The notes beneath the pieces are model-generated. The model was given only the letters and a program-made list of their open reading frames with translations, was not told where the DNA came from and did not search any database. A DNA stretch of 64,000 nt from an uncultured bacterium (lineage in GTDB: Bacteria > Patescibacteriota > Minisyncoccia > UBA6257 > 2-01-FULL-56-20): the NCBI GenBank assembly GCA_963844965.1, contig CAWJQC010000006.1, forward strand, positions 1 to 64,000. Direction: 5' to 3'. Every line of letters starts with the position of its first letter. Positions within the stretch are counted from its first letter, which is position 1. Both the position numbers and the translations under genes were made by a program. Of this stretch, positions 1 through 27,484 are shown in pieces.

Positions 1-172
1 CCAGTTTCTACCACATCAACCCGTTGCTGGCCTGACTCAATGTTTGAGATATGCGACTGAGGGCGGCCGATTTTTTTGGCCGCTTGCACTTGAGTGAGCC
101 CGGCTTCTACGGCGGGCCTTTCGGAGACGCTCCACCATATAGGCATATTCCCTCGTCTGGATCGATTTCATA
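1..172 (-). CDS. XRE-family HTH regulator, partial (runs off the window start); inverted copy of 3201-3419 with an indel
   Basis: Reverse complement of 1-230 matches 3190-3370. The mirrored start codon (cat) is at 170-172. Confidence 0.35.
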
Positions 173-372
173 CCTTTTCACGCTATATCCAAGAAAACTA
201 ATATCCAAATATTGGATATTGTGATATTTTTTGGAAGGGTTGGTCTGGCACAATTTGATGCTTCCCGTGGCGGTTTGTTTTTCTTGTCCTCTGGACTTCC
301 ACCACCGCTCAGTCATCAATACCGTCGGGTTATCCCGAAAGGTCGAAACAGAAGACAAATAAAAAAACATGA

Positions 373-1040
373 GTGCATTTTTTGTATTTTCTGTCATTTG
401 TAGCCCTAGGTGTTGAAATCCGCTGGACCGTGAAACCTGTTGATCCCTCAAGCAGCAGACCCGTGGGAAAGTGCTCCTTTGGTACGGTGGGGCATTCCTT
501 CTTCTCTGTTCTCATCGGCGTGTCTTATCTGTTGTCGCCTAGGGCACCCAGCGTCCGTGGCGAACACTACATCGAAGTTCTTGCTCGAAGAGGGAACAAG
601 CCCCGTCCTGCCGCAGCCGTCCCCAGTCGGAGCCCGGGGTCTCAAATTTTGCAGGTCTGACTGACTCCAGTTGAAGAGACCGAATCCAAAACCACAAGCC
701 CGCGTCTGCGCCGCAACGCAATGACTCACCCTGCTCCAGTCTTGAGGCTCCAACTCCAACTCCCGGCTCTTGTACCTACACCTGTGCAGCCGCAAACCGT
801 CTGATATCTGGGAGTACCCCAAACATAAATCCACGCAGACGTTTACCGTGGGGAGTAGCTGGCAGATGACCTGGAGCTATGACCGCTCGACCTTCGGTAT
901 TTTTCTCGGGGGAATTTCCAGGTGTACATTAACACCGCAAACATGTATTGCCCTCGTTCGACAATACCGGCGTGAACCAGCTCGGCGCGTCCTGGGATCG
1001 GAGACGGACTATTACCACACTGCTGGGAGCTATTATTGAG
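373..1040 (+). pseudogene. Degraded copy of a small secreted Pro-rich protein (mirror of 2322-3006)
   Basis: ORFs 373..660 and 770..1039 share the signal-peptide-like N-terminus (FLSFVALGV) and the C-terminal motifs QTFTVGSSWQMTWSYD / TDYYHT with the right-arm gene, but carry multiple indels. Confidence 0.35.
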
Positions 1041-1302
1041 CGGTGAAATTCAGAGGGGGAGCCTGGCACATTGCAAGGCTAAGGGTTAAGGGAGTCGCGG
1101 CACGATCCAATCCTCAATTGAACGGGATTTTATCTGTTTCTTGCTCCGACTAAAAGAGTTGTGCTTTTGCGGAATGCAATGTATTGGGCCTTACAATTTT
1201 GGTATGCTACCGTCTTAATCGCCGCGCATCTAATCTCTCTCTCTCTCGAACCGGCCGCGCCGGTTCGAGTCCCCTCGAATACCTACTAATCCTTAAGCCA
1301 GA

Positions 1303-1690
1303 AGGAAATTCGTCTTTCAGGTTTCTGAGCAAGCTCTCGTTGTATTACCGTGCGCTGAGCATTCCAGTGTACGAGGCGAATAGCTCTGTTCGGTTGGATT
1401 TGCGTCCAGGGCCCGATATTTCGCCTTGTGTTTGCGGTTCGCAAACAACGACCATGATCGGGAAAGTGAACCCATCCAAAGAAGTCGACGCCGGAAGCGA
1501 AGCTCTCAATAAAAATCTTGTCCGGATGAAGGAAAAGCTTGAGCCGTATATCGCCAAGAAATCCGTCAATGTGCGGCATCATGCTTTCCAGATAGTTTTT
1601 GTCACGGGAAAAGAATTGCAAAATCGTCGGCATATCGAAGATAGTATTGTACCTTCATCCCGCGTTTTATGAATTGGTCGAATTCATTCA
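1303..1690 (-). pseudogene. Reverse transcriptase, 3' portion only (motif C onward), left-arm copy
   Basis: YLRYADDF (YADD motif), LKLFLHPDKIFI, GVDFLGW thumb motifs; a frameshift sits ~1440. There are no RT domains 1-4 upstream; the gene is cut at the palindrome centre. Confidence 0.5.
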
Positions 1691-1695
1691 TATAA

Positions 1696-2122
1696 ATGTT
1701 CACTTCGCAACTTCTTGTGAACATTTATATGAATGAATTCGACCAATTCATAAAACGCGGGATGAAGGTACAATACTATCTTCGATATGCCGACGATTTT
1801 GCAATTCTTTCCCGTGACAAAAACTATCTGGAAAGCATGATGCCGCACATTGACGGATTTCTTGGCGACGGCTCAAGCTTGCCCTTCATCCGGACAAGGT
1901 TTTTATCAAGAGCTTCGCTTCCGGCGTCGACTTCCTTGGATGGGTTCACTTTCCCGATCATCGTGTTTTGCGAACCGCGAGCAAAAAGCGAATGTTTCGG
2001 GGCCTGGACGCAAATCCAACCGAACAGACTATTGCCTCGTACGCTGGAATGCTCACGCACGGTAATGCAACGCGACTTGCTCAGAACCTGAAAGACGAAT
2101 TTCCCTTCTGGTTTAAGGATTA
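1696..2122 (+). pseudogene. Reverse transcriptase, 3' portion only, right-arm copy (DGR-type C-terminal signature)
   Basis: QYYLRYADDFAIL ... (frameshift ~1870) ... LKLALHPDKVFIKSFASGVDFLGWVHFPDH ... IASYAGMLTHGNATRLAQNL, then a stop at 2120-2122. Confidence 0.5.
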
Positions 2123-2137
2123 GTAGGTATTCGAGGA

Positions 2138-2175
2138 CTCGAACCGGCGCGGCCGGTTCGAGAGAGAGAGAGAGT
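2138..2175. other. Perfect 11-bp GC hairpin (ctcgaaccggc/gccggttcgag) followed by (AG)7, immediately 3' of the RT stop; mirrored at ~1190-1272
   Basis: Seen directly in the sequence. Confidence 0.5.
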
Positions 2176-2321
2176 AGAATGCGCGGCGATTGAGAGACGG
2201 TAGCATACCAAAATTGTAAGGCCGATACATTGCATTCCGCAAACACAATACTTTTTGTCAAAGCAAGAACATGAGAAAATCCCCGTTCAATTGGGGATTT
2301 TATCGTGCCGCCGGAACTACA

Positions 2322-3006
2322 CTAACCCTTTACCGTAATGTGCCAGCTGCACTCTGAATTCACCTCGAGATAATAGCTGCCACCCGTGTGGTAATAGTCA
2401 GTATCCGATCCAGACGCGCCGAGCTGGTTCACGCCGGTATTGTCGAACGAGGGCGATCCGTTTGCGGTGTTAATGTACACCTGGAAATTCCCCCGATTCC
2501 CAAAGGTCGAGCAGTCATAGCTCCAGGTCATCTGCCAGCTATTCCCCACGGTAAACGTCTGCGTGGGTCTGCGTCCGCTACCAGAGATATCAAGAACGGT
2601 TTGCGGCTGCACAGGTGTAGGGGCGGGAGCGGGAGTTGGAGTTGGAGTGGACTGGAACAGGCTGCGGCGTTGGTTGCGGCGCAGGCGCGGGCTGTGGTTT
2701 CGGCATCGTCTTTACAACTGGAGTCAGAGAGTCCCGCGAAACCGGCTCAGGGCTCGGGGTTGAGGACGGCTGCGCGGCAGGGGCTTGTACTTCTTGCGCA
2801 GGAGCCGATGTCGTGTTCGCCACGGGCGCTGATGCCGTCGGCGACGACGGATCGACACGCCGATGATAAAGAGAAGAAGGAATGCCCCACCGTACCAAAG
2901 GAGCACTTTCCCACGGGTCTGCTGCTTGAAGGATCCACGGTTTCACGAGTCCCACGATTGCAACGCCTAGGGCTACAAATGACAGGAGTCCGAAAAATGC
3001 ACTCAT
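2322..3006 (-). CDS. Small secreted or anchored protein: signal/TM segment, Pro-rich linker (PKPQPAPAPQPTPQPVPV), ~95-aa C-terminal domain; candidate DGR target
   Basis: ORFs 2590..3120 (start at MSAFFGLLSFVALGV, 3006) and 2322..2612 are joined by a 1-nt frameshift. It lies convergent with the RT fragment. Confidence 0.45.
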
Positions 3007-3200
3007 GTTTTTTATTTGTCTTCTGTTTCGACCTTTCGGGATAGCTTTCTTTCCAACACCATTGATGACGCAGCGGTGGTGGAAGTCCAGAGGGCAAGAA
3101 ACCGCCACGGGAACCATCAAATTATGCCGGACCCACCCTTCCAGAATATCACAATATCCAATATTTGGATATTGGTTTCTTGGATATAGCGTGAAAAGGT

Positions 3201-3419
3201 ATGAAATCGATCCAGACGAGGGAATATGCCTATATGGTGGAGCGTCTCCGAAAGGCCCGCATAGAAGCCGGGCTCACTCAAGTGCAAGCGGCCAAAAAAA
3301 TCGGCCGCCCTCAGTCGCATATCTCAAACATTGAGTCAGGCCAGCAACGGGTTGATGTGGTAGAACTCAAGCGCTTCGCCGCATTGTACGGGAAGAGGCT
3401 GAACTATTTTATAAAGTAA
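3201..3419 (+). CDS. XRE-family HTH transcriptional regulator
   Basis: [25 protein letters not shown] is a classic Cro/C1-type HTH. Confidence 0.75.
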   Translation: MKSIQTREYAYMVERLRKARIEAGLTQVQAAKKIGRPQSHISNIESGQQRVDVVELKRFAALYGKRLNYFIK

Positions 3420-19028: not shown

Positions 19029-19102
19029 CCCGAGCACGAGAAAGGAAATTTGGCTTAAGTCCATAGCTTAAGCCATTTTTTATATAAATTAGATTATTTA
19101 TG

Positions 19103-19120
19103 GTCCTCGGGTAGCGGAGG
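19103..19120. repeat. attL-like direct repeat of the tRNA-Ser 3' end (gcggagggggagggaatc)
   Basis: 17 of 18 nt match 26533-26550. Confidence 0.55.
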
Positions 19121-19277
19121 GGGAGGGAATCTCACACGAACACATGTTTTGCCCCGACCCCCTGACTTTTAAAACCCACGGTTTTTAATATTTTCCTACA
19201 CGGGGCAAAACGGTTCGAATCCCTCGGCTCATAGTTGCAAAAAGAAAACACCTCTTCGGGTGTTCCTTTTTGCAATT

Positions 19278-19365
19278 GCGGTGTCTGCTTGAAAATATCC
19301 GAACCGAACTGAATGGGCTTTTTAACGATAACGGACATAAATAGTTTTTAATCGGAACGGAAAGG
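19278..19365. repeat. IR arm T' (88 bp), perfect inverted copy of 20715-20802
   Basis: Direct comparison. Confidence 0.8.
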
Positions 19366-19397
19366 ACGATTTCAAGTTTTTCTTTGACGGCTTCATT

Positions 19398-20336
19398 TTA
19401 AATTTTTCTATTTTCCGTGTTAGAGCCTGTCGTCAGAAGGTCAGATTCCTTTTCAAATTCTTGCTGATTAATTAAACGCAATAAAAGATGGCGCACTGTG
19501 TAGTTCTTTATTTTGGCTGGATTATTTCCATCCTCAGTTTCAGTTACTACAAATTCATCAAGAGTTATTTTTCTTACCCAACCAGTTTCTAAGTCCATAT
19601 AAATATCTCCTTTGTATTCAGAACCACCCTCTGTTTTAATATATTTATCTTCAGAAGATTTGACAGCCATTTTCAGAGTGCTTTCGCCAGAATCATATCC
19701 AATTATCGCGCAGACAGCTCTATCAACTATGCTTGCTCCCTTAAATTCAAGCGTGACTTCCCCATTGCGAAAAACCGATCCTGGCTTAATAGTTGTGCCA
19801 AGATTAACAGGTGCCTCGCTAAAAGCCGCCGGATGCACAATCTTATCACCTATTAATTTCAATGCATCTATTCCTTTTCCAAAAAGCGGTCTTGAAAAGA
19901 TATCATTCAGAGCGTGAAAATCAATGAAATTATTGTATATTGCATAACAAAATTCAGGAGAAATTTTATTCCCCTTGCTGTCACTTATACCTTCAAATTT
20001 ATCATGCGGAATTCCGAATACAGGGCCTTTATCAAGTACGCCTGACATCCTATTAAATTCATAGTTCCATGATTTGAGTGCAGGAATAGTAACAATATTT
20101 TCAGAATTTAATTGTAAACAAAATTCTTTAATAGTACATTGATCTAATTTTTTCTCTGACAATGTTGCGGGAATGTAGCGGAGTTTTAATGAATATGTTT
20201 CGGTGCCTGTGCGTTTTCCGTCAAACCCCATGTGAATAAACTGGGTTCGCATATGATAATACTGGGTTTCCAGTTTTCGATTAATTGAAAAATCAAATTG
20301 GCATGCGAGATTTTGTAAAAGAGTTTTATTCCCCAT
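19398..20336 (-). CDS. Hypothetical protein (312 aa), the AT-rich cargo of unit A
   Basis: Intact ORF, no motif recognised. Confidence 0.6.
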   Translation of the reverse strand: MGNKTLLQNLACQFDFSINRKLETQYYHMRTQFIHMGFDGKRTGTETYSLKLRYIPATLSEKKLDQCTIKEFCLQLNSENIVTIPALKSWNYEFNRMSGVLDKGPVFGIPHDKFEGISDSKGNKISPEFCYAIYNNFIDFHALNDIFSRPLFGKGIDALKLIGDKIVHPAAFSEAPVNLGTTIKPGSVFRNGEVTLEFKGASIVDRAVCAIIGYDSGESTLKMAVKSSEDKYIKTEGGSEYKGDIYMDLETGWVRKITLDEFVVTETEDGNNPAKIKNYTVRHLLLRLINQQEFEKESDLLTTGSNTENRKI

Positions 20337-20340
20337 ATCT

Positions 20341-20556
20341 TTATTTCATTAAATTATCAATCGTAATGCCAAGTCCGTTGGCAATTTTTACGACAGTCTG
20401 AATAGACGGCTTAGTAATAACATTACTTTCGATTTTAGTAAGCGTTGTGTAGGGAAGGTTGGATTTTCTTGCCAGTTCGTCTTGCGTTAGTTCTTGCTTA
20501 TTCCTAAGCTGTTTTATTTTATCTCCAATCGTTTCCTTGTTGTTTTGACTTTTCAT
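20341..20556 (-). CDS. XRE-family HTH regulator
   Basis: LTQDELARKSNLPYTTLTKIE. Confidence 0.75.
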   Translation of the reverse strand: MKSQNNKETIGDKIKQLRNKQELTQDELARKSNLPYTTLTKIESNVITKPSIQTVVKIANGLGITIDNLMK

Positions 20557-20714
20557 AGTTTCCTAAGTATGATAGTATTAGTATGGGTGCTTATTTGACC
20601 CTTCATAATTATACTAACAAATTTTATGAGATTAGTCCACTCAAAAAATAAAAATCCGCTTTTAGCCTGTATAAAGTACGAGCCGACATTTTTGACGGGT
20701 TCTTTGGCAGTTTG

Positions 20715-20802
20715 CCTTTCCGTTCCGATTAAAAACTATTTATGTCCGTTATCGTTAAAAAGCCCATTCAGTTCGGTTCGGATATTTTCAAGCAGACACC
20801 GC
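20715..20802. repeat. IR arm T
   Basis: Inverted copy of 19278-19365; ends with the core caccgc. Confidence 0.8.
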
Positions 20803-20880
20803 CAGTTAAGAAATGGCTCGCCTTGCAGTCGGGCTCGCCAGCCGTTTTGTGGGGAAATTTCAAGCCGTTTCGCATTAAGA
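20797..20880. repeat. IR arm P (84 bp), perfect inverted copy of 22265-22348 (the 3' end of recombinase 1)
   Basis: Direct comparison. It lies 26 bp upstream of the recombinase 1 start codon. Confidence 0.85.
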
Positions 20881-20906
20881 AAGGCTAAAAGCAGATTTTC
20901 TAAAAT

Positions 20907-22349
20907 ATGAGATATTTTATCTACACAAGGAAATCAACCGAGAGCGAGGACAGACAGATGATGTCGCTGGAATCGCAGCTGAACGAGCTGAAAGAATTTG
21001 CCGTCAAAGAAAAACTTGAAATCGTCGCTTCGCTGAGCGAAGCGCAAACCGCCAAAGAACCAGGGCGAAAGATTTTTGCAGAAATGCTTGATCGGATTTG
21101 CGCAGGAGAGGCCGACGGAGTTTTGGCTTGGCATCCCGACCGATTGGCCCGCAATTCGATAGACGGCGGAAAGATTATATATCTCTTGGACACAGGAAAA
21201 ATCAAAGACCTCAAATTTCCGACGTTCTGGTTCGACAGCACGCCGCAGGGGAAATTTATGCTGAACATGGCCTTTGGACAGAGCAAATACTATGTGGACA
21301 ATTTGAGCGAGAATATTAAACGAGGACATCGAGCAAAACTAAGAAAAGGAATTTGGCCCGGCTTCGCCCCGCTTGGATATCTGAATAATCCAAAAACAAG
21401 GGCTATTGATGTTGATAGCGAAAGAGCACCGATTATTAGGAAAGCGTTTGAACTTTACTCAATCGGCGAATATACCCTGAAAGCCCTTGCCAAAGTTTTG
21501 GAACAAGCGGGACTAAGAAGCCATAAAGGCAATATTCTTGTCGTTGCCTGTGTCCAGCGACTTTTGAAGAATCCGATTTACTACGGCGTATTCTCTTTCA
21601 ACGGTGAAGTATATGACGGAACGCACGAGCCTATTATTTCCAAGAAACTTTTTGATTCTGTTCAACAAGTGATGAGCAATCGAGGAAAGAAGCAACGAAA
21701 ACGAAAACACGACTTTGCTTTTTCAGGATTTATGCGTTGCGGAAAGTGCGACTGCCTTATCACCGCCGAAACGCAGAAGGGACACACCTATTATCGTTGC
21801 ACCAAGAAAAAGCAAACTTGCAATGAAAAGTATTTGCGCGAGGAAGTTCTTGTTGAACAGATGAAATCCGTCATTCAAAAAGTTTCAATTCCCGACGACT
21901 GGGCGGACAATATGCTTGCCGAGATAGACCGAGAGAAAGAAAGCATACAAAACGAGGGCTTTGTTTTTGTCCAAAATCTCAAAACGCAGAAAGTGGAAGT
22001 TGAGCAGAAAATAGATCGCTTGCTCGATATCTACATTGAGGGTAAGGGCATATCGCCCGAAGAATATCAGGACAAGAAAGCGAAATTGCTCAACGAGAAG
22101 GGCGACATCGAGCAAAGAATTAGAGATTTTGGGCAAAAGGGAAATAACCGGCTCGAACTTATCCGAGAAGTGATTTTACAGAGTAGCCAAGCCAAAATTG
22201 TTTTATCGCAGGGCGATAAAAAGCAAATCCGCGAATTTCTCAAAAATGTCGGCTCGAACTTTACTCTTAATGCGAAACGGCTTGAAATTTCCCCACAAAA
22301 CGGCTGGCGAGCCCGACTGCAAGGCGAGCCATTTCTTAACTGGCGGTGA
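20907..22349 (+). CDS. Large serine recombinase 1 (resolvase catalytic domain + recombinase domain + Zn ribbon + coiled coil)
   Basis: YTRKST...R (catalytic Ser region), AWHPDRLARN, CGKCDCLITAETQKGHTYYRC. Confidence 0.85.
   Translation: MRYFIYTRKSTESEDRQMMSLESQLNELKEFAVKEKLEIVASLSEAQTAKEPGRKIFAEMLDRICAGEADGVLAWHPDRLARNSIDGGKIIYLLDTGKIKDLKFPTFWFDSTPQGKFMLNMAFGQSKYYVDNLSENIKRGHRAKLRKGIWPGFAPLGYLNNPKTRAIDVDSERAPIIRKAFELYSIGEYTLKALAKVLEQAGLRSHKGNILVVACVQRLLKNPIYYGVFSFNGEVYDGTHEPIISKKLFDSVQQVMSNRGKKQRKRKHDFAFSGFMRCGKCDCLITAETQKGHTYYRCTKKKQTCNEKYLREEVLVEQMKSVIQKVSIPDDWADNMLAEIDREKESIQNEGFVFVQNLKTQKVEVEQKIDRLLDIYIEGKGISPEEYQDKKAKLLNEKGDIEQRIRDFGQKGNNRLELIREVILQSSQAKIVLSQGDKKQIREFLKNVGSNFTLNAKRLEISPQNGWRARLQGEPFLNWR
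22265..22348. repeat. IR arm P' (inside the recombinase 1 3' end; its stop codon overlaps the core)
   Basis: Inverted copy of 20797-20880. Confidence 0.85.
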
Positions 22350-22572
22350 GATATTAGACTTTGCTCGAACCCACTTCGCACGCGCGGAGCGCGTGGTGGC
22401 TTGAACCGGAAGCGTACGCCCCGATTCCGCTGACAGCGCCTCGACCGCGCTCGCGGACTCGCGCGGGCAAACCCAAAAATTTCCTTGCATTTTCTTTGCG
22501 CGGCTCCTCCCCCCACCCCTCCGCCGCAAGGCGGGAAATGAAGGAAAGGAAATTTTTGGTTTGCGTCGCCAC
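22349..22572. repeat. IR arm Q' (~224 bp), inverted copy of 24631-24860; contains a ~96-nt hairpin with a G-rich loop
   Basis: Direct comparison. The table ORFs inside it (22354..22707, 24595..24849) mirror each other and are probably non-coding. Confidence 0.8.
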
Positions 22573-22781
22573 AAGGAAACTCCACAAAGAGTAACAAAAG
22601 ATTTCATCAAATGAAACCCTTTGCTCCGTATCCTTGTGGCGACCCGAGGCGCAATACAATGCGGTTTGCGCTAGGGCACAATCATATTTGATATGTGCTT
22701 GCCCCACCCGCCCAGTGCGCGCACAACCAGCCCGGCCGTTTTTAGGAGAAATTATAAAACGGCGGGGCTGGCTCCCTTGAA

Positions 22782-23387
22782 TTACTTAAAGCAAGTGAAC
22801 TGAGGCAAGACCACAGATAACGCAACAAATGCCAGTCCTAATATAAAGGTAGCCGTTATGAGATTTGCATTTGAGAAAAGATTCTCACCCAATTCTTTCA
22901 AAATTGTATTTTCGTAGGCATCCGCTTCCTCCATGTCGGGGTTATTCCTCATGTCATGATATTTTTTCTCAAATTCTTCCAATTTCGGCTTGTATTCCTC
23001 TGGGGCAATTTCACCCGTCGAGAATTGTGTGCTGACATAGGAAAAGTCGCCAAGAGTTTTCTGAATGCCCTTCAAGCCCGCCGTATATTTTGCGCCAAAA
23101 ATCAGATTGCGTTTGAAACCAAGGAATGCAACAACAACCGCGATGACAAAAAATATAAATCCTACGCTGGCAAGCATGTCATTTTTTGGAAAGTTGCTTG
23201 CCAACAGCGCTTGAGTTAAACCTGCGAAAATGCCGCAGACCGTGACTATATACTCGTAGTATTTTCTGTGGCTACTCTTAAACCCATCAATTTGCGGGCT
23301 TGTAGTCAGAATAAAACTGTGAATTTTCTCCTTATAGGATTGCGCTTTTTGCTTCAATTTACTTACTTCTTCATCAGTCATAGACAT
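22782..23387 (-). CDS. Membrane protein, hypothetical (cargo of unit B)
   Basis: Four predicted TM segments. Confidence 0.55.
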   Translation of the reverse strand: MSMTDEEVSKLKQKAQSYKEKIHSFILTTSPQIDGFKSSHRKYYEYIVTVCGIFAGLTQALLASNFPKNDMLASVGFIFFVIAVVVAFLGFKRNLIFGAKYTAGLKGIQKTLGDFSYVSTQFSTGEIAPEEYKPKLEEFEKKYHDMRNNPDMEEADAYENTILKELGENLFSNANLITATFILGLAFVALSVVLPQFTCFK

Positions 23388-23389
23388 TT

Positions 23390-24367
23390 TTATTTCAAAA
23401 GATTGTTGATGTTTTGAATAATACCGGCGCTTTCAACCTGCCCGGTCACTACCCAGGTCGGTATGCCAAGAAAACAAACCTTTCCGTTTTCTTTTGCCAA
23501 CGCGAGGCCGCCAGAATTTCCGTGGTCGACTTTCGCAGACACTAAGTAATCACTGATTCCGTAGCTGGCATCATAACCGCTGATAATTCCCGTGGTAACA
23601 CTTTCAGGCGGCGCAAACTGTTCCAGATTTACCGAAGAGGCAGGATAGCCAACTATTGCAACTGATGTGCCAACGGTGGCTTTTTGCGAGCATCTGGTCA
23701 TTGTTCCAACCCTGTAATCCAACTGGTTAACCTCTAAATATTCATCGAGCGGCGCACCATTTTGGTGCGCGATGGTCCGTGCCTTCTCATTTCTACTAAA
23801 AGGGACGATCGCGAAGTCGCGTTCGGCGTTAGGTTTATAGGCATTTGCTAAATCCAAAATATAAGCACCCGAACGATACGACATTCCATTGACTTCGTAC
23901 TTCGGATTCATAAATTTATCGTTCACAAACAAACATGTATCCATTCCACTGACCACATGCCAATTCGTAAGCAGTTGTCCCGTTTTATAAAGTATGGCGG
24001 TGCCGACATACTCATTGTTATCAGTGTCAAAACAGGTAACTACTCCGACTGTATCAAGATAGGGTTGGATGTCGGAGGAAGATAGGTCTTGAGAAATATT
24101 TGCATTAGTTGCTTTCTGGTTGCTCGCTTGATTAGATTTAACTTGTTTCTTCAAATCTTCCACCTCTTGCTTTAGTTGGTCGATTTCCGAAGCAGGCGGT
24201 GTTGTCGTCCCAGAATTAGCGCTATTCGCCGGAGTTTGCGAAGTATTTTCTACCGGATGATTTTTAATCTGTTTCCATCCAAAATATCCCGCGCCGCCCA
24301 AAACCAAAATTCCCGCAATAATTGCGATGAGGAGCGGTATTTGAATAAATCCCTTTGAGTTTTTCAT
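23390..24367 (-). CDS. Trypsin-like (S1) serine protease with an N-terminal TM anchor
   Basis: Catalytic triad context TNWHVV (His), DFAIV (Asp), GNSGG (Ser). Confidence 0.7.
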   Translation of the reverse strand: MKNSKGFIQIPLLIAIIAGILVLGGAGYFGWKQIKNHPVENTSQTPANSANSGTTTPPASEIDQLKQEVEDLKKQVKSNQASNQKATNANISQDLSSSDIQPYLDTVGVVTCFDTDNNEYVGTAILYKTGQLLTNWHVVSGMDTCLFVNDKFMNPKYEVNGMSYRSGAYILDLANAYKPNAERDFAIVPFSRNEKARTIAHQNGAPLDEYLEVNQLDYRVGTMTRCSQKATVGTSVAIVGYPASSVNLEQFAPPESVTTGIISGYDASYGISDYLVSAKVDHGNSGGLALAKENGKVCFLGIPTWVVTGQVESAGIIQNINNLLK

Positions 24368-24371
24368 AAAT

Positions 24372-24575
24372 CTATTTTAGCAGTTTATCAACCGAAACCC
24401 CAAGCGCTTGAGCCAACCTTTCCAACTGTTGAATGGTGATATTTTTCTTCCCGTTTTCGATTGCACTCATATATCCTCTGTCCATATCAAGCGCTCGACA
24501 AATATCGCCTTGTGTCATTTTCTTTTGCGTCCTGATTTTCTTAATGTTTCCGCCAAGGCGTTTACTTATCAACAT
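24372..24575 (-). CDS. XRE-family HTH regulator
   Basis: MTQGDICRALDMDRGYMSAIENG. Confidence 0.7.
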   Translation of the reverse strand: MLISKRLGGNIKKIRTQKKMTQGDICRALDMDRGYMSAIENGKKNITIQQLERLAQALGVSVDKLLK

Positions 24576-24630
24576 TAGTATAGCATAGGAGATATTGCAC
24601 TTTCAAACAATCTTGAACTATAATTCAATA

Positions 24631-24860
24631 GTGGCGACGCAAACCAAAAATTTCCTTTCCTTCATTTCCCGCCTTGCGGCGGAGGGGTGGGGGGAGGAGC
24701 CGCGCAAAGAAAATGCAAGGAAATTTTTGGGTTTGCCCGCGCGAGTCCGCGAGCGCGGTCGAGGCGCTGTCAGCGGAATCGGGGCGTACGCTTCCGGTTC
24801 AAGCCACCACGCGCTCCGCGCGTGCGAAGTGGGTTCGAGCAAAGTCTAATATCTCACCGC
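24631..24860. repeat. IR arm Q
   Basis: Inverted copy of 22349-22572; hairpin 24640-24735 with the loop GGAGGGGTGGGGGGAGG. Confidence 0.8.
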
Positions 24861-24986
24861 AGATAGAAACTTCGCGTTCGGACAGAGCCGCGCCGCTGTG
24901 CGGCGCGGCAGAGTGGGCGGGCAAGAAATGCCGCCGCGAAGCGGCGAATTGGCTCGGCGGGGGGAATCCGAAATGCGGGGATTTGG
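24857..24986. repeat. IR arm S (~130 bp), perfect inverted copy of 26408-26535
   Basis: Direct comparison. It lies 26 bp upstream of the recombinase 2 start. Confidence 0.85.
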
Positions 24987-25011
24987 CTCTTGTTTCAAAT
25001 CCAAGAACTAT

Positions 25012-26420
25012 ATGAATATCAAACCAAAATATTTTCTATACGCGCGTAAGAGCACCGAGGACGATGACAGGCAAATCATGTCCATCGAGGCACAGCTTTT
25101 TGAGTTGCGGGAGATCGCGCGTAAAGAAAATCTTGAAATTCTTGAGGAATTTCAAGAGTCGAAAAGCGCAAAGACACCGGGGCGCGAAATATTTGGCGAG
25201 ATGATGCGCCGCGTAGAAGAAAGCGATGGTGTTGGTATTTTGGCGTGGCATCCCGATCGATTGGCGAGAAATAGTATTGATGGCGGGCGCATCATCTACT
25301 CTGTTGATACGCGCAAGATCGTTTCTTTGCGCTTTCCGACATTTTGGTTTGAACCAACCCCGCAGGGGCTCTTTATGTTGCAAGTGGCGTTCGGGCAATC
25401 TAAATATTATTCGGACAATTTGAGCGAAAATATCAAGCGCGGCATCCGCCAAAAATTGCGTCGGGGCGAGTGGCTCAATCGTGCGCCCTTTGGCTATCAA
25501 AATAACCCGCGAATTCGCAATATCGAGCCGCATCCAGACAAACGCGCGTATTGTGAAATTGGCGTACGAGGAATACGCCAAAGGGTCGCATACGCTGATT
25601 TCGTTGTCGCAATTTTTGGCGGACTTGAATGTGGTTACTTCTCACGGAACGCCACTTGCCAAAGTTTCCATCAAACGACTGCTGACACATCGGGTATATA
25701 TTGGCTTCGTCAAACATGGTGCTGAATGGTTTGATGGAAACTTTGAGCCGATTCTAACTCCCGCATTGTTTGAAGCCGTGCAGAGGGTTGTGGCGGGCAA
25801 GGAGCGGCCGCGCACGCGCAAGGTGAAGCATGATTTTCCACTTGTCGGCCTCTTTCGCTGTGGCGAGTGCGGCGGCATGATTTCCGCGCAGTGGGCAGTC
25901 AATCGTTGGGGTACAAAATATCGCTACTATCGCTGTTCTAAAAAGCACGGCCGTTGCTCGCAACCGTATGTGCACGAAGGCCGAGCTTGCCGACAAGATA
26001 CGGCACGGCTTCAAACAATCTCGCTTTGCGATCGCTATACCGATTGGATGTTGACGAAAGTGAAAGAGTGGGAGCGCGAGGAAGTTGGAGCGTCGCAAAG
26101 CGAGGTTCAAAATCTTTCCGCAAGTATCAAAGCGGACGAGGAGCGCATGGAAAAGCTAGTTTCCGCGTATCTCGATGGCGATGTACCGAAAGCAAATTTA
26201 TCTTGACCAAAAAAGATACGCTCATGCGCTCTCTCGCCGCTTTGCGGGAAAAATTGAAAGATTTTGAACGCGGGAGAAAGAATTGGGTCGAACCCCTGCG
26301 GGAATGGATTTTGGATTTGAAACAAGCCGATTTTTTGTCCCGTTCGAATGATTTGTACCAAATCAAGCAGTTTGTACAAAAAATCGGAACGAACCCTATG
26401 GTTCGTGCCAAATCCCCGCA
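25012..26420 (+). CDS. Large serine recombinase 2 (paralog of 20907-22349), two frameshifts (~25530, ~26190)
   Basis: YARKSTEDDDRQIMSIEAQ, AWHPDRLARNSIDGGRIIY, CGECGGMISAQ...YYRCSKK. The C-terminus IKQFVQKIGTNPMVRAKSPHFGF is homologous to the recombinase 1 C-terminus and lies in arm S'. Confidence 0.7.
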
Positions 26421-26535
26421 TTTCGGATTCCCCCCGCCGAGCCAATTCGCCGCTTCGCGGCGGCATTTCTTGCCCGCCCACTCTGCCGCGCCGCACAGCG
26501 GCGCGGCTCTGTCCGAACGCGAAGTTTCTATCTGC
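26408..26535. repeat. IR arm S' (abuts the tRNA-Ser 3' end)
   Basis: Inverted copy of 24857-24986. Confidence 0.85.
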
Positions 26536-26619
26536 GGAGGGGGAGGGATTCGAACCCTCGATACCTTGCGGCATACACGCTTTCCAAGCGTGCGCACTAG
26601 GCCACTATGCGACCCCTCC
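26535..26619 (-). tRNA. tRNA-Ser (anticodon GGA), type II with a long variable arm
   Basis: Manual fold: acceptor GGAGGGG/CCCCTCC, anticodon stem CACGC/GCGTG with loop TTGGAAA, T-arm GAGGGTTCGAATCCCTC. Confidence 0.8.
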
Positions 26620-26791
26620 TTATCAACCAAAATCTTACAACTTAAATTTTAAATTTTCCAATTTTTAATTTTCAAACCGACACCGCCTGTAATGCCTTAA
26701 TCCTTTCTTTAATCCCTGCCTGCCGGCAGGCAGGGATGCGCCTCTACGTCGCACTAGTGCGCCGAGGAGGCGTAATGCGACCCCTCCGAAA

Positions 26792-27484
26792 CTACTCAAT
26801 TATTGTGCCTCGGAAACTCTCGCCCTTCAAGAGCCGCCCGAAATTTTTCAAATCCTTGCCGTTTATGATTATTGATTTGAGTCCGCGCCGCTCCGAAAGC
26901 CGCGCGGCTATGGGGTCAACCGGCGCGTGCGAGCCGGGAATCCATTTGCCGGGAATTAATTTGCGGTATTCGCGCCAGCCGATTTTTTCATACGGGCGCG
27001 CGTCTTTGTGCAGGGATGGATCTTTGTGATAGACGTGCGCCGGTTTTCCGGCCACGATAAACTCGGGAATCCGCAAATCGGCGGCAATCGCCGCCGCCAC
27101 GAAGTCCGTTGACCATCCCGGACGCCAGCCGGACGCGATCGTTATCGGATATTTTATTTTTTTCATCTTTCCTCTCTTATCAAAAACAACCGGATCGGCA
27201 ATCCTCCGAAAAATCGTGCGCAGAAGATGCGCGTTCAGGCGCGTGGCGTGAATTCCTATCCAATCCTTGTCTTCGTTCGCGAGCGGCGATACATTGTGCG
27301 CGGCATTTTGAAAAACGCGGGCCAATCGCCCGCCGCCGACCACAATTACGAAGCGCTTCCCTCTCTTCAAAAGTTTTTCTATAAACTTCTTGAAATTTTT
27401 TAAATAACCGGTGTCTATGTCGTCCGGATAGATAACCGAACCTCCAAGCGCGACCACCACCGTTTTGCCAAAAGCGTATTTCAT
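26792..27484 (-). CDS. pyrH: Uridylate (UMP) kinase
   Basis: Amino-acid-kinase fold with VVALGGS / IVVGGG motifs. Confidence 0.8.
   Translation of the reverse strand: MKYAFGKTVVVALGGSVIYPDDIDTGYLKNFKKFIEKLLKRGKRFVIVVGGGRLARVFQNAAHNVSPLANEDKDWIGIHATRLNAHLLRTIFRRIADPVVFDKRGKMKKIKYPITIASGWRPGWSTDFVAAAIAADLRIPEFIVAGKPAHVYHKDPSLHKDARPYEKIGWREYRKLIPGKWIPGSHAPVDPIAARLSERRGLKSIIINGKDLKNFGRLLKGESFRGTIIE

Follow-up and report, generated by a model that had tools for sequence, protein, structure and literature searches.

The window, a stretch of 64,000 nucleotides from an uncultured bacterium of the Patescibacteriota, probably carries at 19114-26537 a tandem array of integrative elements that belong to one very large family driven by large serine recombinases (LSRs). 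The array is placed between host genes on one side and the 3' end of a tRNA-Ser(GGA) gene (26534-26619, minus strand) on the other. It consists of two islands, element A (19278-22348), which has an intact recombinase gene, rec1, and element B (22343-26537), whose recombinase gene, rec2, has two frameshifts, together with the stump of a third (remnant C, 19114-19277), which appears to be the deletion remnant of an older element; all three lie head-to-tail. In the target tRNA gene, the core is formed by the acceptor end and the discriminator (CCGC), and the T-loop, GTTCGAAT, lies 11 nt from it. The chain of inverted repeats in the window is not a local oddity but an instance of this family.

A previous reading of this DNA from the sequence only (the sequence-only reading) described four chained, abutting inverted-repeat pairs at the tRNA-Ser 3' end, and this was confirmed. 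The T pair (19278-19365 and 20715-20802) is perfect over 88 bp and 95% identical over 99 bp, and the P pair (20797-20880 and 22265-22348; 84 bp), the Q pair (22343-22572 and 24631-24860; 230 bp) and the S pair (24857-24987 and 26407-26537; 131 bp) are 100% identical. Perfect repeats of 84-230 bp cannot have arisen by chance. Neighbouring arms meet at C(A/T)CCGC, as had been noted, with an overlap of 4-6 nt. The sharp alternation between GC-rich arms and recombinases and AT-rich cargo that had been reported was found only in part: the GC contents of the P, Q and S arms are 0.54, 0.61 and 0.67 and those of the two cargo segments 0.35 and 0.43, but the T arm has only 0.41, and rec1 (0.44) and rec2 (0.49) compare with ~0.50 in the flanks.

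In element A, the outer copy of the L arm (T', 19278-19365, minus strand) starts at junction J1, (T|Y)', with the core GCGGTG at 19278-19283. The inner L arm T (20715-20802) and the R arm P (20797-20880) form the internal site T|P (20715-20880, plus strand), which is intact and attP-like, with the core CACCGC at 20797-20802. At the junction (Q|P)' (22265-22572, minus strand), P' (22265-22348) and the outer L arm of element B, Q' (22343-22572), meet at GCGGTG (22343-22348), and both arms are of the attP type; Q-like arms were also found after rec1-like genes in two other loci (L098 and L154). The internal site of element B, Q|S (24631-24987, plus strand), is likewise intact and attP-like, with the L arm Q (24631-24860) and the R arm S (24857-24987) sharing the core CCGC (24857-24860). 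The array ends with S' (26407-26537, minus strand) in the junction (tRNA|S)', a hybrid site of the attL/attR type at the tRNA.

The sequence-only reading had proposed a search for the same repeat embedding in other genomes, and the layout was found in more than 100 independent assemblies, mostly of Patescibacteria. It reads (L|X)' - XRE-led cargo - L|R - recombinase - (tRNA|R)'; the 3' end of the recombinase gene overlaps a tRNA gene that converges on it. Over 7000 homologs belong to the recombinase family at E<=1e-20. In their C-terminal tails they have the sequence NWRRGRDSNPR, which corresponds to the antisense of a tRNA over its CCA end, acceptor stem and T-loop. Among 80 genome loci, a near-perfect repeat of 75-115 bp surrounds the recombinase gene at nearly every locus with enough flank, and a second, abutting pair of ~100-130 bp surrounds an upstream cargo of 1-8 kb. 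The recombinase 3' end adjoins a convergent tRNA gene in 113 of 143 loci, the target being tRNA-Ser in 85 of the 113 and tRNA-Trp, tRNA-Gln or others in the remainder. Tandem arrays with attP-like inner junctions are present at L041, L068, L098, L099, L154 and L158, and a four-pair chain is found in L068 (AP024682.1, a record titled 'complete genome'). No published description of the family was found in literature searches, and the earlier statement that this is not a described element family holds as far as these searches show.

Comparison of the junctions shows the pattern of classical site-specific exchange, in which L|R has the part of attP, and the tRNA 3' end plus the flank downstream of it (tRNA|X) that of attB. 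The likely best explanation of the data as a whole is that the outer junctions are hybrid products of an attP x attB exchange. In the junction listing of 47 loci, R is common to L|R and tRNA|R, and L is common to L|R and L|X, with a core of 3-8 nt. In all 15 loci that have the strict motif, the distance between the T-loop motif and the core is greater in L than in the tRNA by exactly 5 nt, and when 43 junction pairs were scanned for offsets without bias, the peak fell at +5 (0.379, compared with <=0.285 for shuffled arms). In one locus (L163), a whole L'..R' unit lies inside the recombinase gene of another family member, and the flanks of this insertion are contiguous (610|612) in three relatives (L005, L009 and L010) that represent empty-site counterparts; the bipartite unit therefore inserts precisely (within 1 nt) and without target duplication. 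The earlier proposal of bipartite units inserted serially at the tRNA end by core exchange agrees with the family junctions, the 5-bp geometry and L163. The family-wide junction comparisons also match its proposal that the composite site occurs twice per unit in inverted orientation: the long repeats are the two attP arms, each present twice, because a second, inverted and intact attP is kept in every element. Across the family, one attP copy overlaps the last 25-30 recombinase codons and the other lies 25-65 bp upstream of the start codon. A circular-looking contig of 4.6 kb (L008), with no tRNA and an N gap at the upstream site, is an ambiguous candidate for a circle and could be a graph artefact of the repeats.

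The rec1 gene (20907-22349, plus strand) encodes an intact LSR of 480 aa with Resolvase, Recombinase and Zn_ribbon_recom domains, and its ATG is located 26 bp after the end of the P arm. Pfam domains and PDB matches group the protein with the large serine integrases, which was counted as weaker support, as was the lack of a predicted sigma-70-like promoter in front of either recombinase gene. No recombination directionality factor was identified. Of the two recombinase genes described previously, only rec1 is intact, and rec2 (25012-26652, plus strand) is a pseudogene, which had been overlooked. It has two 1-nt frameshifts, at ~25.5 kb and ~26.2 kb, and its coding sequence runs through three frames (25012-25725, 25481-26206 and 25954-26652); tblastn with the intact relative from L098 aligned in frames 2, 3 and 2. 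The earlier reading placed the last codons and the stop of each recombinase in its own arm. In rec1, the last 28 codons lie inside P' and the stop TGA is formed across the P'|Q' junction; rec2 has no stop inside S', and its last frame runs through S' and the antisense of the tRNA to 26652.

Both cargo segments start with an XRE gene beside the internal junction, in line with the XRE-led cargo recognised earlier. In element A (cargo at 19398-20556, minus strand), the XRE-family HTH gene (20341-20556) precedes a 312-aa ORF (19398-20336), for which no match was found in Pfam or PADLOC. Element B (cargo at 22782-24575, minus strand) has an XRE gene (24372-24575), a trypsin-like protease (23390-24367) and a membrane protein (22782-23387), with a promoter-like site at 24606-24577. 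The XRE and recombinase genes are divergent, and the second attP site between them may serve as an operator.

Short inverted copies of rec1 are also present in element A. A micro-copy of codons ~31-41 (19360-19391, minus strand; partner 21000-21031) is located directly inside the outer L arm, and 36 of the 39 related elements have conserved it. Further micro-copies lie at 20651-20720 (minus strand), after the XRE gene and before the inner L arm; they correspond to the rec1 leader (partner 20875-20899), to rec1 codons 46-52 (partner 21039-21061) and to a 3' coding stretch of rec1 just before P' (partner 22240-22263; codons 445-454 family-wide). The attP model leaves two facts unexplained, namely these conserved recombinase micro-copies in the cargo flanks and the identity of the arms far past the recombinase half-site.

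At the left end, the sequence-only reading had placed an 18-nt copy of the tRNA 3' end at 19103-19120 and a T-arm-like fragment at 19203-19217; the copy is actually 15 nt at 19114-19128 (minus strand), identical to the tRNA-Ser 3' end, and the fragment is at 19212-19225. The remnant of a third element had been overlooked here. The 15 nt more probably represent the core end of an L-type arm that belonged to an older, deleted element. The T-loop-like GTTCGTGT lies 17 nt from the core, which is the attP-type spacing, and the remnant ends in the start of an R-type arm, AATTGCAAAAAGG (minus-strand reading), adjoining J1.

In the proposed life cycle, the recombinase would recognise the tRNA T-loop and the acceptor end, both of which are mimicked by the L arm, where the T-loop motif is 5 bp more distant. 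If the outer hybrid sites recombined, a circle would be released in which two inverted attP copies enclose the recombinase gene, and integration via the attP copy at the recombinase 3' end would result in the stable orientation that is observed, in which the recombinase gene and the tRNA gene converge. A newcomer would enter at the tRNA-proximal junction, turning it into an attP-like L_new|R_old, and repeated arrivals would lead to chains of abutting repeats in which hybrid ends are kept only by the whole array. The inner junctions of the array in the window are all attP-like, therefore hybrid ends for canonical excision exist only at the whole-array level, and element A, bounded by the attP-like junctions T|Y and Q|P, cannot exit alone by attL x attR. 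Together with the two frameshifts in rec2, the stump C and the dead, locked derivatives that are common in the family, this could mean that the array is a fossil in which no element can move any longer. We consider this rather unlikely. C is a scar and rec2 is dead, but rec1 is full length and looks functional, and all eight T, P, Q and S arms are perfect or near perfect. The outer sites (L_C|X)' and (tRNA|S)' are still hybrid and could release the whole array, and rec1 could in principle act on related sites.

Between L110 and L151, a natural pair whose contigs were assembled across a repeat of 90 bp at an unknown k-mer size, the recombinase segment differs in orientation. Host flank, tRNA and R arm match in reverse with 100% identity over 396 bp, while R, leader and rec match on the same strand with 99.9% identity over 1269 bp. 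This bears out the earlier remark that the gene survives inversion of its segment. A tRNA upstream of the recombinase gene was also found in L058 and L093-097. It is possible, as a tentative suggestion, that the second attP and the long R repeat allow the recombinase segment to flip relative to the tRNA promoter, being off when converging on the tRNA gene and on when co-directional; the off state would be the resting state. If the attP copies were equivalent, both orientations would be expected equally, and one of them is found in >95% of loci, which can be reconciled only by assuming in addition that the other one is unstable. Recombination of attP with attL or attR is not known for canonical large serine integrases, so flipping would have to occur by homologous recombination or under relaxed rules.

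A resident, shufflon-like locus, in which the recombinases flip the four segments as a programmed multi-inversion switch of the cargo and their own genes, could also account for perfect inverted repeats around every segment and for the L110/L151 pair. A second class of rearrangement, with the recombinase gene split at an inverted micro-repeat of 35-70 bp (L142), truncation of the gene at codon 29-32 in nine independent loci and the ultraconservation of the repeated stretches at synonymous sites point in the same direction. However, most split-recombinase variants have lost the N-terminal piece and are dead ends rather than switch states. The position and strand of the XRE gene, and with it the cargo orientation, are the same in 28/28 related elements where it was detected, and the 113 recombinase 3' ends toward a tRNA contrast with 3 independent reversed cases, so the control of cargo operons by multiple inversion, suggested previously as an alternative, fails. 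The junctions follow an integration logic, with hybrid sites, host-specific X flanks and many tRNAs, hosts and phyla, and the nested L163 insertion is precise and matched by an empty site in relatives, which makes such a switch improbable. It is also very unlikely that each segment is its own mobile unit, with R-rec-R' as an IS-like element with ~80-bp terminal inverted repeats, L'-cargo-L as a non-autonomous cassette mobilised in trans, and the chain arising from neighbouring insertions. Near-identical recombinase modules (99%) with different cargo in L114 and L142, many database contigs of 1.6-1.9 kb, about the size of R-rec-R', and long perfect arms resembling terminal repeats would fit this. 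Yet among the loci inspected where sequence was available, a recombinase without an L arm next to R was never seen (upstream, 78 were L-like and 6 tRNA, the other 42 being rearranged, truncated or missed by the pattern), and the L163 insertion carried cargo and recombinase in one piece. Target duplications are absent, the arms have attP-type half-site geometry rather than transposase-type ends, and short contigs are the usual assembler output at inverted repeats longer than k.

Mis-assembly, whether from chimeric reads or from an inverted duplication that was collapsed or wrongly joined, is extremely unlikely to have created the repeats, even though they are 100% identical, another large near-palindrome lies at the window start (1-3365) and short k-mers cannot fix the orientation of segments between the 230-bp and 131-bp repeats. 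More than 100 contigs that differ in project and assembler (SPAdes NODE_, MEGAHIT k141_, JGI and the 'complete genome' record) show the same architecture, and the arms are lineage-specific, have boundaries exactly at the att core and co-vary with the recombinase C-terminus and the target tRNA.

Integration by attP x attB exchange, our preferred reading, can be compared with a known system. In the LI integrase, the zinc-ribbon-domain motif is shifted between attP and attB (PMC3783163), and the 5-bp shift of the T-loop motif in this family is equal to the attP/attB shift known for LI integrase and the large serine integrases.

The chain of inverted repeats ends on its right at the minus-strand tRNA-Ser(GGA) gene (26534-26619), and all four pairs lie to the left of it: T (19278-19365 and 20715-20802; 88 bp, perfect) and P (20797-20880 and 22265-22348; 84 bp), which are the arms of element A, and Q (22343-22572 and 24631-24860; 230 bp) and S (24857-24987 and 26407-26537; 131 bp), which are those of element B. 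Adjacent arms share an overlap of 4-6 nt, and all six junctions (J0-J5, from left to right) contain CCGC (GCGG), corresponding to the tRNA acceptor end plus discriminator. Both cargo segments are opposite in strand to the recombinase genes, and the first gene of each, adjoining the inner junction, is an XRE gene. The array is flanked by host genes, gyrB at the left and an amino-acid-kinase-family gene, MazG and an M48 peptidase at the right. The alternation of GC content between segments described in the sequence-only reading holds in part only, and a structured-RNA reading of the GC-rich Q and S arms was unsupported, as an Rfam scan of 18-28 kb (E<=1) matched only the tRNA. Each Q arm has its own 22-nt inverted repeat (86%) around a G-rich stretch (22470-22562 and 24641-24733), and Q-like arms also come after rec1-like genes in two relatives, L098 and L154.

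The recombinase gene of element A, rec1 (20907-22349), encodes an intact large serine recombinase (LSR) of 480 aa. Its final 28 codons are the P' arm (the prime marks inversion), its stop codon is formed across the joint of P' with Q', and the inverted P copy ends 26 bp upstream of its ATG. The gene of element B, rec2, is a pseudogene starting at 25012 and distributed over three frames, the final one crossing S' and the antisense tRNA up to 26652; the intact gene of L098 aligns with it in frames 2, 3 and 2. Pfam PF00239 (Resolvase), PF07508 (Recombinase) and PF13408 (zinc ribbon) match rec1 as well as the rec2 frames. Two 1-nt frameshifts, at ~25.5 kb and ~26.2 kb, interrupt rec2 (25012-26652), yet its 230-bp and 131-bp arms are perfect; rec2 is either a very recent pseudogene or the outcome of sequencing errors.

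Homologs of rec1 are numerous, with more than 7000 at E<=1e-20 in one search, and 548 stretches of the family were confirmed in a set with one genome per species. By their source names, some of the homologs come from Patescibacteria, Brocadia, Nitrospira, Thermodesulfovibrionales and Saganbacteria. When 80 loci from one-genome-per-species contigs and 80 metagenomic loci were each compared with themselves, a near-perfect inverted repeat of 75-115 bp was found to bracket the recombinase gene in nearly all loci with enough flank, one arm forming the last 25-30 codons of the gene and the other lying 25-65 bp upstream of the ATG. Directly adjoining it is a second pair, typically ~100-130 bp and at most ~290 bp long, whose arms enclose 0.8-8 kb of upstream sequence. 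L068 (AP024682.1, a record titled 'complete genome') has four chained pairs that run up to tRNA-Ser(GGA), as in the window, and chains are present in L041 and L098 too. The 3' end of the recombinase gene overlaps the convergent 3' end of a tRNA in 113 of 143 loci with flank (Ser isoacceptors in 85, Gln in 10, Trp in 7 and others in the remainder), while the other 30 ends are mostly tRNA fragments or joints to a next element. Viral contigs yielded just two truncated close matches to the recombinase, and the possibility of a phage integrase family was rejected on this near-absence.

We found no description of the family or of its architecture in the literature. Contigs with family members are often 1.6-1.9 kb long, or stop 100-300 bp upstream of the recombinase gene, and the inverted repeats of the family (75-290 bp) seem to be systematic break points in short-read assembly; the architecture has been overlooked so far, probably because the repeats fragment such assemblies. 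At its left end (1-3365), the window also has nested inverted repeats of 80-100% identity, which make up a near-palindrome of ~3.3 kb centred near 1710.

Junctions are written here as left arm/right arm, with the core oriented as C(A/T)CCGC, where L (T and Q in the window) and R (P and S) are the arms of an element and X is the host flank. Across the junctions listed from 47 loci, R is common to L/R and tRNA/R, L is common to L/R and L/X, X differs without relation between hosts, and the common core is 3-8 nt. From this pattern of shared arms, L/R can be recognised as attP and tRNA/X as attB, giving two hybrid sites. The L arm copies the tRNA end (…GTTCGAAT…CACCGCCA) with the T-loop-like motif placed farther from the core, and the shift between L and the tRNA is exactly +5 nt in 15/15 loci having the strict motif. 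An unbiased offset scan of 43 non-identical junction pairs also peaked at +5, where the match fraction was 0.379; the background was ~0.25, and shuffled arms did not exceed 0.285. With the centre set in CC/G, GTTCGAAT lies at about -19..-12 in the tRNA and at -24..-17 in L. The sites of the LI/A118 integrase have the zinc-ribbon-domain motif at bp 11-19 in attB and at bp 16-24 in attP, so that in attB it is displaced by 5 bp towards the centre (PMC3783163). By the +5 geometry, L therefore belongs to the attP type of half-site and the tRNA end to the attB type. The rule is valid for the left half-site only: a search of the right half-sites (R and X) for dyad symmetry or for a motif like the T-loop gave nothing convincing, which makes the sites strongly asymmetric. 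As these half-sites are motif-free and X is unconserved, recognition seems to be mainly based on the left half.

The placement of the sites also determines how the recombinases end. Family proteins vary in length only past a conserved …GWRAL..GEP.F.NWR, and many of them go on with RGRDSNPR, which is translated antisense tRNA, TGG being the complement of CCA and GATTCGAACC that of the T-loop. Read into its own L arm instead, as expected in a circle or after a flip, the recombinase would acquire another conserved tail, NWR-C-x-F/Y-E-N/K-I-R-T-D/E-F/L.

Evidence for movement as one precise unit came from L163, where a complete unit of the rec2-like subfamily (L' 4695 to R' 8020) lies inside the recombinase gene of another family member. 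Its flanks, 259 bp on the left and 260 bp on the right, are contiguous (610/612) in the uninterrupted genes of L005, L009 and L010. From this comparison of an occupied with empty sites, cargo and recombinase move together and without target duplication, which fits conservative serine recombination. This one-piece insertion also speaks against the segments being separate IS-like units. The insertion point in L163, in the AFGQSKYY region, has neither a T-loop-like motif nor a clear 2-nt common core, which makes the event an off-target or pseudo-site insertion.

Besides the two hybrid sites, each integrated element keeps an intact attP (L/R) in inverted orientation to them. The retained attP puts each arm into two copies, which accounts for all of the repeats. 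If the hybrid sites recombined with each other, the element would be released as a circle in which the recombinase gene lies between two inverted attP copies, and we infer such a two-attP circle as the free form. A candidate for it is L008, a contig of 4636 bp with a 51-bp terminal overlap, without tRNA or host genes, with the recombinase gene leading into R'/L' and with restriction-modification cargo; besides an XRE gene, it carries a C5-methyltransferase and a Vsr-like gene. The contig could represent the element in its free state, or its apparent circularity could be an artefact of the assembly graph. L008 is the one locus of 177 with a terminal overlap, and a 10-N gap exactly at its upstream L/R site keeps it from being decisive.

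The junctions of the window follow the same arm-sharing rule as those of the relatives, without target duplication. J1 (T/Y), J2 (T/P), J3 (Q/P) and J4 (Q/S) are attP-like, and hybrid junctions are restricted to J0 (LC/X, where LC is the L arm of a third element, C) and J5 (tRNA/S); in arrays, the joint between elements is Lnext/Rprevious and is attP-like on both sides. The 'tRNA copy' at the left was found to be 15 nt at 19114-19128, which differs from the sequence-only reading, and the T-arm-like fragment, which had also been misplaced, lies at 19212-19225. Y starts in the manner of an R arm, and the arm that the 15-nt copy closes has the spacing of an attP; the best reading of 19114-19277 is therefore that it is what is left of element C. 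A newcomer would insert at tRNA/Rprevious, which is the most plausible site as X is not recognised, and the inferred order of arrival, C, then A, then B, would follow from such tRNA-proximal insertion. Insertion at the distal junction would yield an identical map. Past the 5' end of the tRNA, at 26640-26870, there are three short matches: 26646-26665 is similar to 19395-19414, 26668-26690 is an 87% copy of the T-arm core end and 26775-26787 repeats the tRNA 5' end. Taken together, these matches could represent a further remnant, located beyond the tRNA. An exact look-up of a host-flank protein of the window returned no record, and thereby no assembly of the same organism or empty site.

A survey of 91 cargo proteins found at least 9 DNA methyltransferases and several nucleases, restriction or related (Mrr, BsuBI/PstI, ResIII and Z1/DUF4420), in addition to transporters, trypsin-like proteases, a radical-SAM enzyme and repeat proteins. 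Most cargo proteins, including the 312-aa protein of the window, had no match, and none of the 91 was a replication gene. The only conserved partner of the recombinase gene is the XRE gene, detected in 28 of the 39 elements with both repeat pairs. In all 28 the two genes are on opposite strands and the XRE start lies 107-291 bp inside the inner L arm, a fixed placement which indicates that the cargo does not flip.

The recombinase gene, for its part, faces the tRNA in almost all loci, with three independent exceptions (L058, L093-097 and L151) in which the tRNA is upstream and co-directional. L151 and L110 are from sister samples: over 396 bp, they share host flank, tRNA-Ser(TGA) and R arm at 100% identity but in reverse orientation, while R, the leader and the recombinase gene are 99.9% identical over 1269 bp on the same strand. 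The pair can therefore be read as the same element in the same host with both orientations of the recombinase segment, with the caveat that the contigs were assembled across a 90-bp repeat. In L058 and L093 the repeat is absent, so the orientation is unambiguous, and both are rearranged. In L093-L097 (protein P0034; five samples), tRNA-Ser(+)/R is followed by the leader and by recombinase codons 1-452 fused in frame to the XRE gene; the R'/L' site is absent and the fusion is called as a single protein of 559 aa.

The retention of a second attP could be explained in different ways. The reading that we favour, though at somewhat below even chances, is that its purpose is to act as an orientation switch for the recombinase gene. 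In the resting state, the gene would converge on the strongly transcribed tRNA gene, while a rare flip, either by homologous recombination via the long R repeat or by the enzyme itself under relaxed rules, would place it downstream of the tRNA promoter and alter its C-terminal tail. The bias towards one orientation, despite two identical attP copies, could arise if the off state were absorbing, as we propose. Alternatively, the second attP could, by analogy, be an operator between the divergent XRE and recombinase genes, such as the resolvase has at res. The second attP could also have no function beyond its history. A promoter-like site is predicted upstream of the XRE gene of element B, beyond the Q arm, and none is predicted before rec1 or rec2, which as a prediction weighs little.

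Taking the orientation switch and the two tails together, the duplicated inverted attP would turn the recombinase gene into a self-contained, self-editing switch, a joint reading that we consider unlikely. Either orientation of the gene would be possible between the attP and the tRNA junction. At rest, it would converge on the tRNA and be silenced, with the antisense-tRNA tail …NWR-RGRDSNPR; in the flipped or circular state, read-through would drive it and its tail would come from its own L arm. The enzyme would thus receive a different C-terminus according to how its DNA site is arranged, which could set integration versus excision without a directionality factor, and the micro-copies in the cargo flanks, described below, would be further parts of the control circuit. 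Both conserved tails could instead be by-products of DNA constraints only.

These micro-copies, inverted copies of pieces of the recombinase region, were present in the cargo flanks of 36 of the 39 elements, and in the window at 19360-19391 and 20651-20720. At the outer L arm, the inner flank has a copy of recombinase codons (17/28/34)-40; at the inner L arm, the cargo side has one each of codons 46-52, codons 445-454 and the leader hairpin. In the gene itself, the copied stretches show extreme conservation of third codon positions (0.85-0.91 vs 0.5-0.6 elsewhere), and codons 41-45 form a small palindrome with synonymous compensatory changes between the window and L008. The simple att model leaves the micro-copies unexplained. 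An interpretation of the A and B micro-copies as pseudo-att sites was raised by CCGCCA in some elements and was dropped because the motif is unconserved, its window counterparts being CCGTCA and CTGCCA; for an origin by inverted dimer or fold-back at the codon 41-45 palindrome, no simple derivation fits.

The micro-repeats are breakpoints in natural variants. In L142 (1-500, 2433-3808) a break at codons 28-48 divides the gene, whose N-terminal part is inverted, and in nine independent loci the gene is truncated at codon 29-32 with co-directional cargo upstream; the split or truncated variants at codon 29-32 are L142, L007, L021/L088-092, L028, L035, L119, L134/135, L139 and L150. From their sequences, these variants look like the result of an inversion at the codon 28-40 micro-repeat followed by deletion, and most of the split, truncated or fused variants are dead, locked islands. 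In a separate comparison, the recombinase gene and upstream attP region of L114 and L142 were 99% identical and the cargo entirely different, which indicates that cargo has been swapped between otherwise identical backbones with breakpoints at micro-repeats.

The family is widespread in Patescibacteria and other uncultivated phyla, where gene mobility is almost unstudied, and, given the cargo rich in restriction-modification and further accessory genes, the elements are probably a main vehicle of defence-gene exchange in these tiny genomes. Its integrases read a universal feature, the tRNA T-loop plus acceptor end, which attP mimics with the textbook 5-bp shift; knowing this mode of recognition helps to understand how serine integrases work, and may help to re-target them. 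With a spare intact attP kept in the integrated element and an integrase gene that ends in its own site, the family poses a testable question, namely what governs direction and expression when no directionality factor is known.

Among known systems, large serine integrases (A118/LI, SPbeta SprA, Bxb1, phiC31) have the same domain set, including a zinc ribbon with a coiled-coil region, the same conservative exchange at a short core without target duplication, and the same 5-bp offset of the motif, which is nearer the centre in attB than in attP half-sites. The PDB matches of rec1 are the A118/LI and SPbeta integrases, a distant relationship at E about 1e-5. Unlike these integrases, the family is nearly absent from viral contigs, targets tRNA 3' ends with the T-loop as motif, has its attP laid over the last part of the integrase gene (the 3' end), retains a second intact inverted attP in the integrated element, and has no recombination directionality factor identified. 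An IS or DDE-type transposon was rejected, as the sole enzyme is an LSR and neither the L163 insertion nor the window junctions show a target duplication. Tn4451 and Tn5397 have an LSR (TnpX, TndX) that excises the element as a circle and integrates it without a separate excisionase, which is the one-enzyme mode that an element without a directionality factor would need. Their ends are short and GA-centred and their targets loose, and they are without tRNA targeting, a duplicated inverted attP or a recombinase gene bracketed by repeats of its own 3' end.

Other systems resemble the family in arrangement more than in enzyme. In SSV1-type integrases, attP is inside the integrase gene, so that integration into a tRNA gene changes the integrase ORF, much as integration in the family swaps the residues after NWR; SSV1, however, uses a tyrosine recombinase whose gene is split in two, whereas in the family only the extreme C-terminal tail changes and the functional length is kept. 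The proposed free circle would be like the yeast 2-micron plasmid with Flp in having two unique segments and long perfect inverted repeats that hold the recombinase's own site, with the recombinase gene in one segment. In contrast to 2-micron, the family has a serine rather than a tyrosine recombinase, lives integrated, the free circle being hypothetical, and no replication origin or replication gene was found. With Hin, Gin and Pin, shufflons and invertons, it has in common a serine recombinase gene beside repeat-bracketed DNA and, in one contig pair, both orientations. Invertible switches use sites of 14-30 bp for small invertases and flip promoters or gene ends of resident loci, whereas the arms here are 75-290 bp, the cargo is unflipped and the locus is an insertion.

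In lifestyle, the comparison is with tycheposons, whose integration leaves direct repeats of a part of the tRNA. As small islands that are neither conjugative nor phages, they lie at tRNA 3' ends, have variable cargo including defence genes and form tandem arrays; 910 of 937 have tyrosine recombinases and a few have LSRs, and many have replication genes (Hackl et al., bioRxiv 10.1101/2020.12.28.424599). Small cargo islands at tRNA 3' ends, possibly in tandem, are thus common to both, whereas the family differs by its LSR, its core of 3-8 nt, the absence of replication genes among the 91 cargo proteins and the nested inverted repeats that result from the duplicated attP. The elements therefore resemble large serine integrases in enzyme and chemistry and tycheposon-like tRNA islands in lifestyle, and what sets them apart is the T-loop-directed tRNA targeting, the attP over the gene 3' end, the retained inverted attP and the network of micro-repeats.
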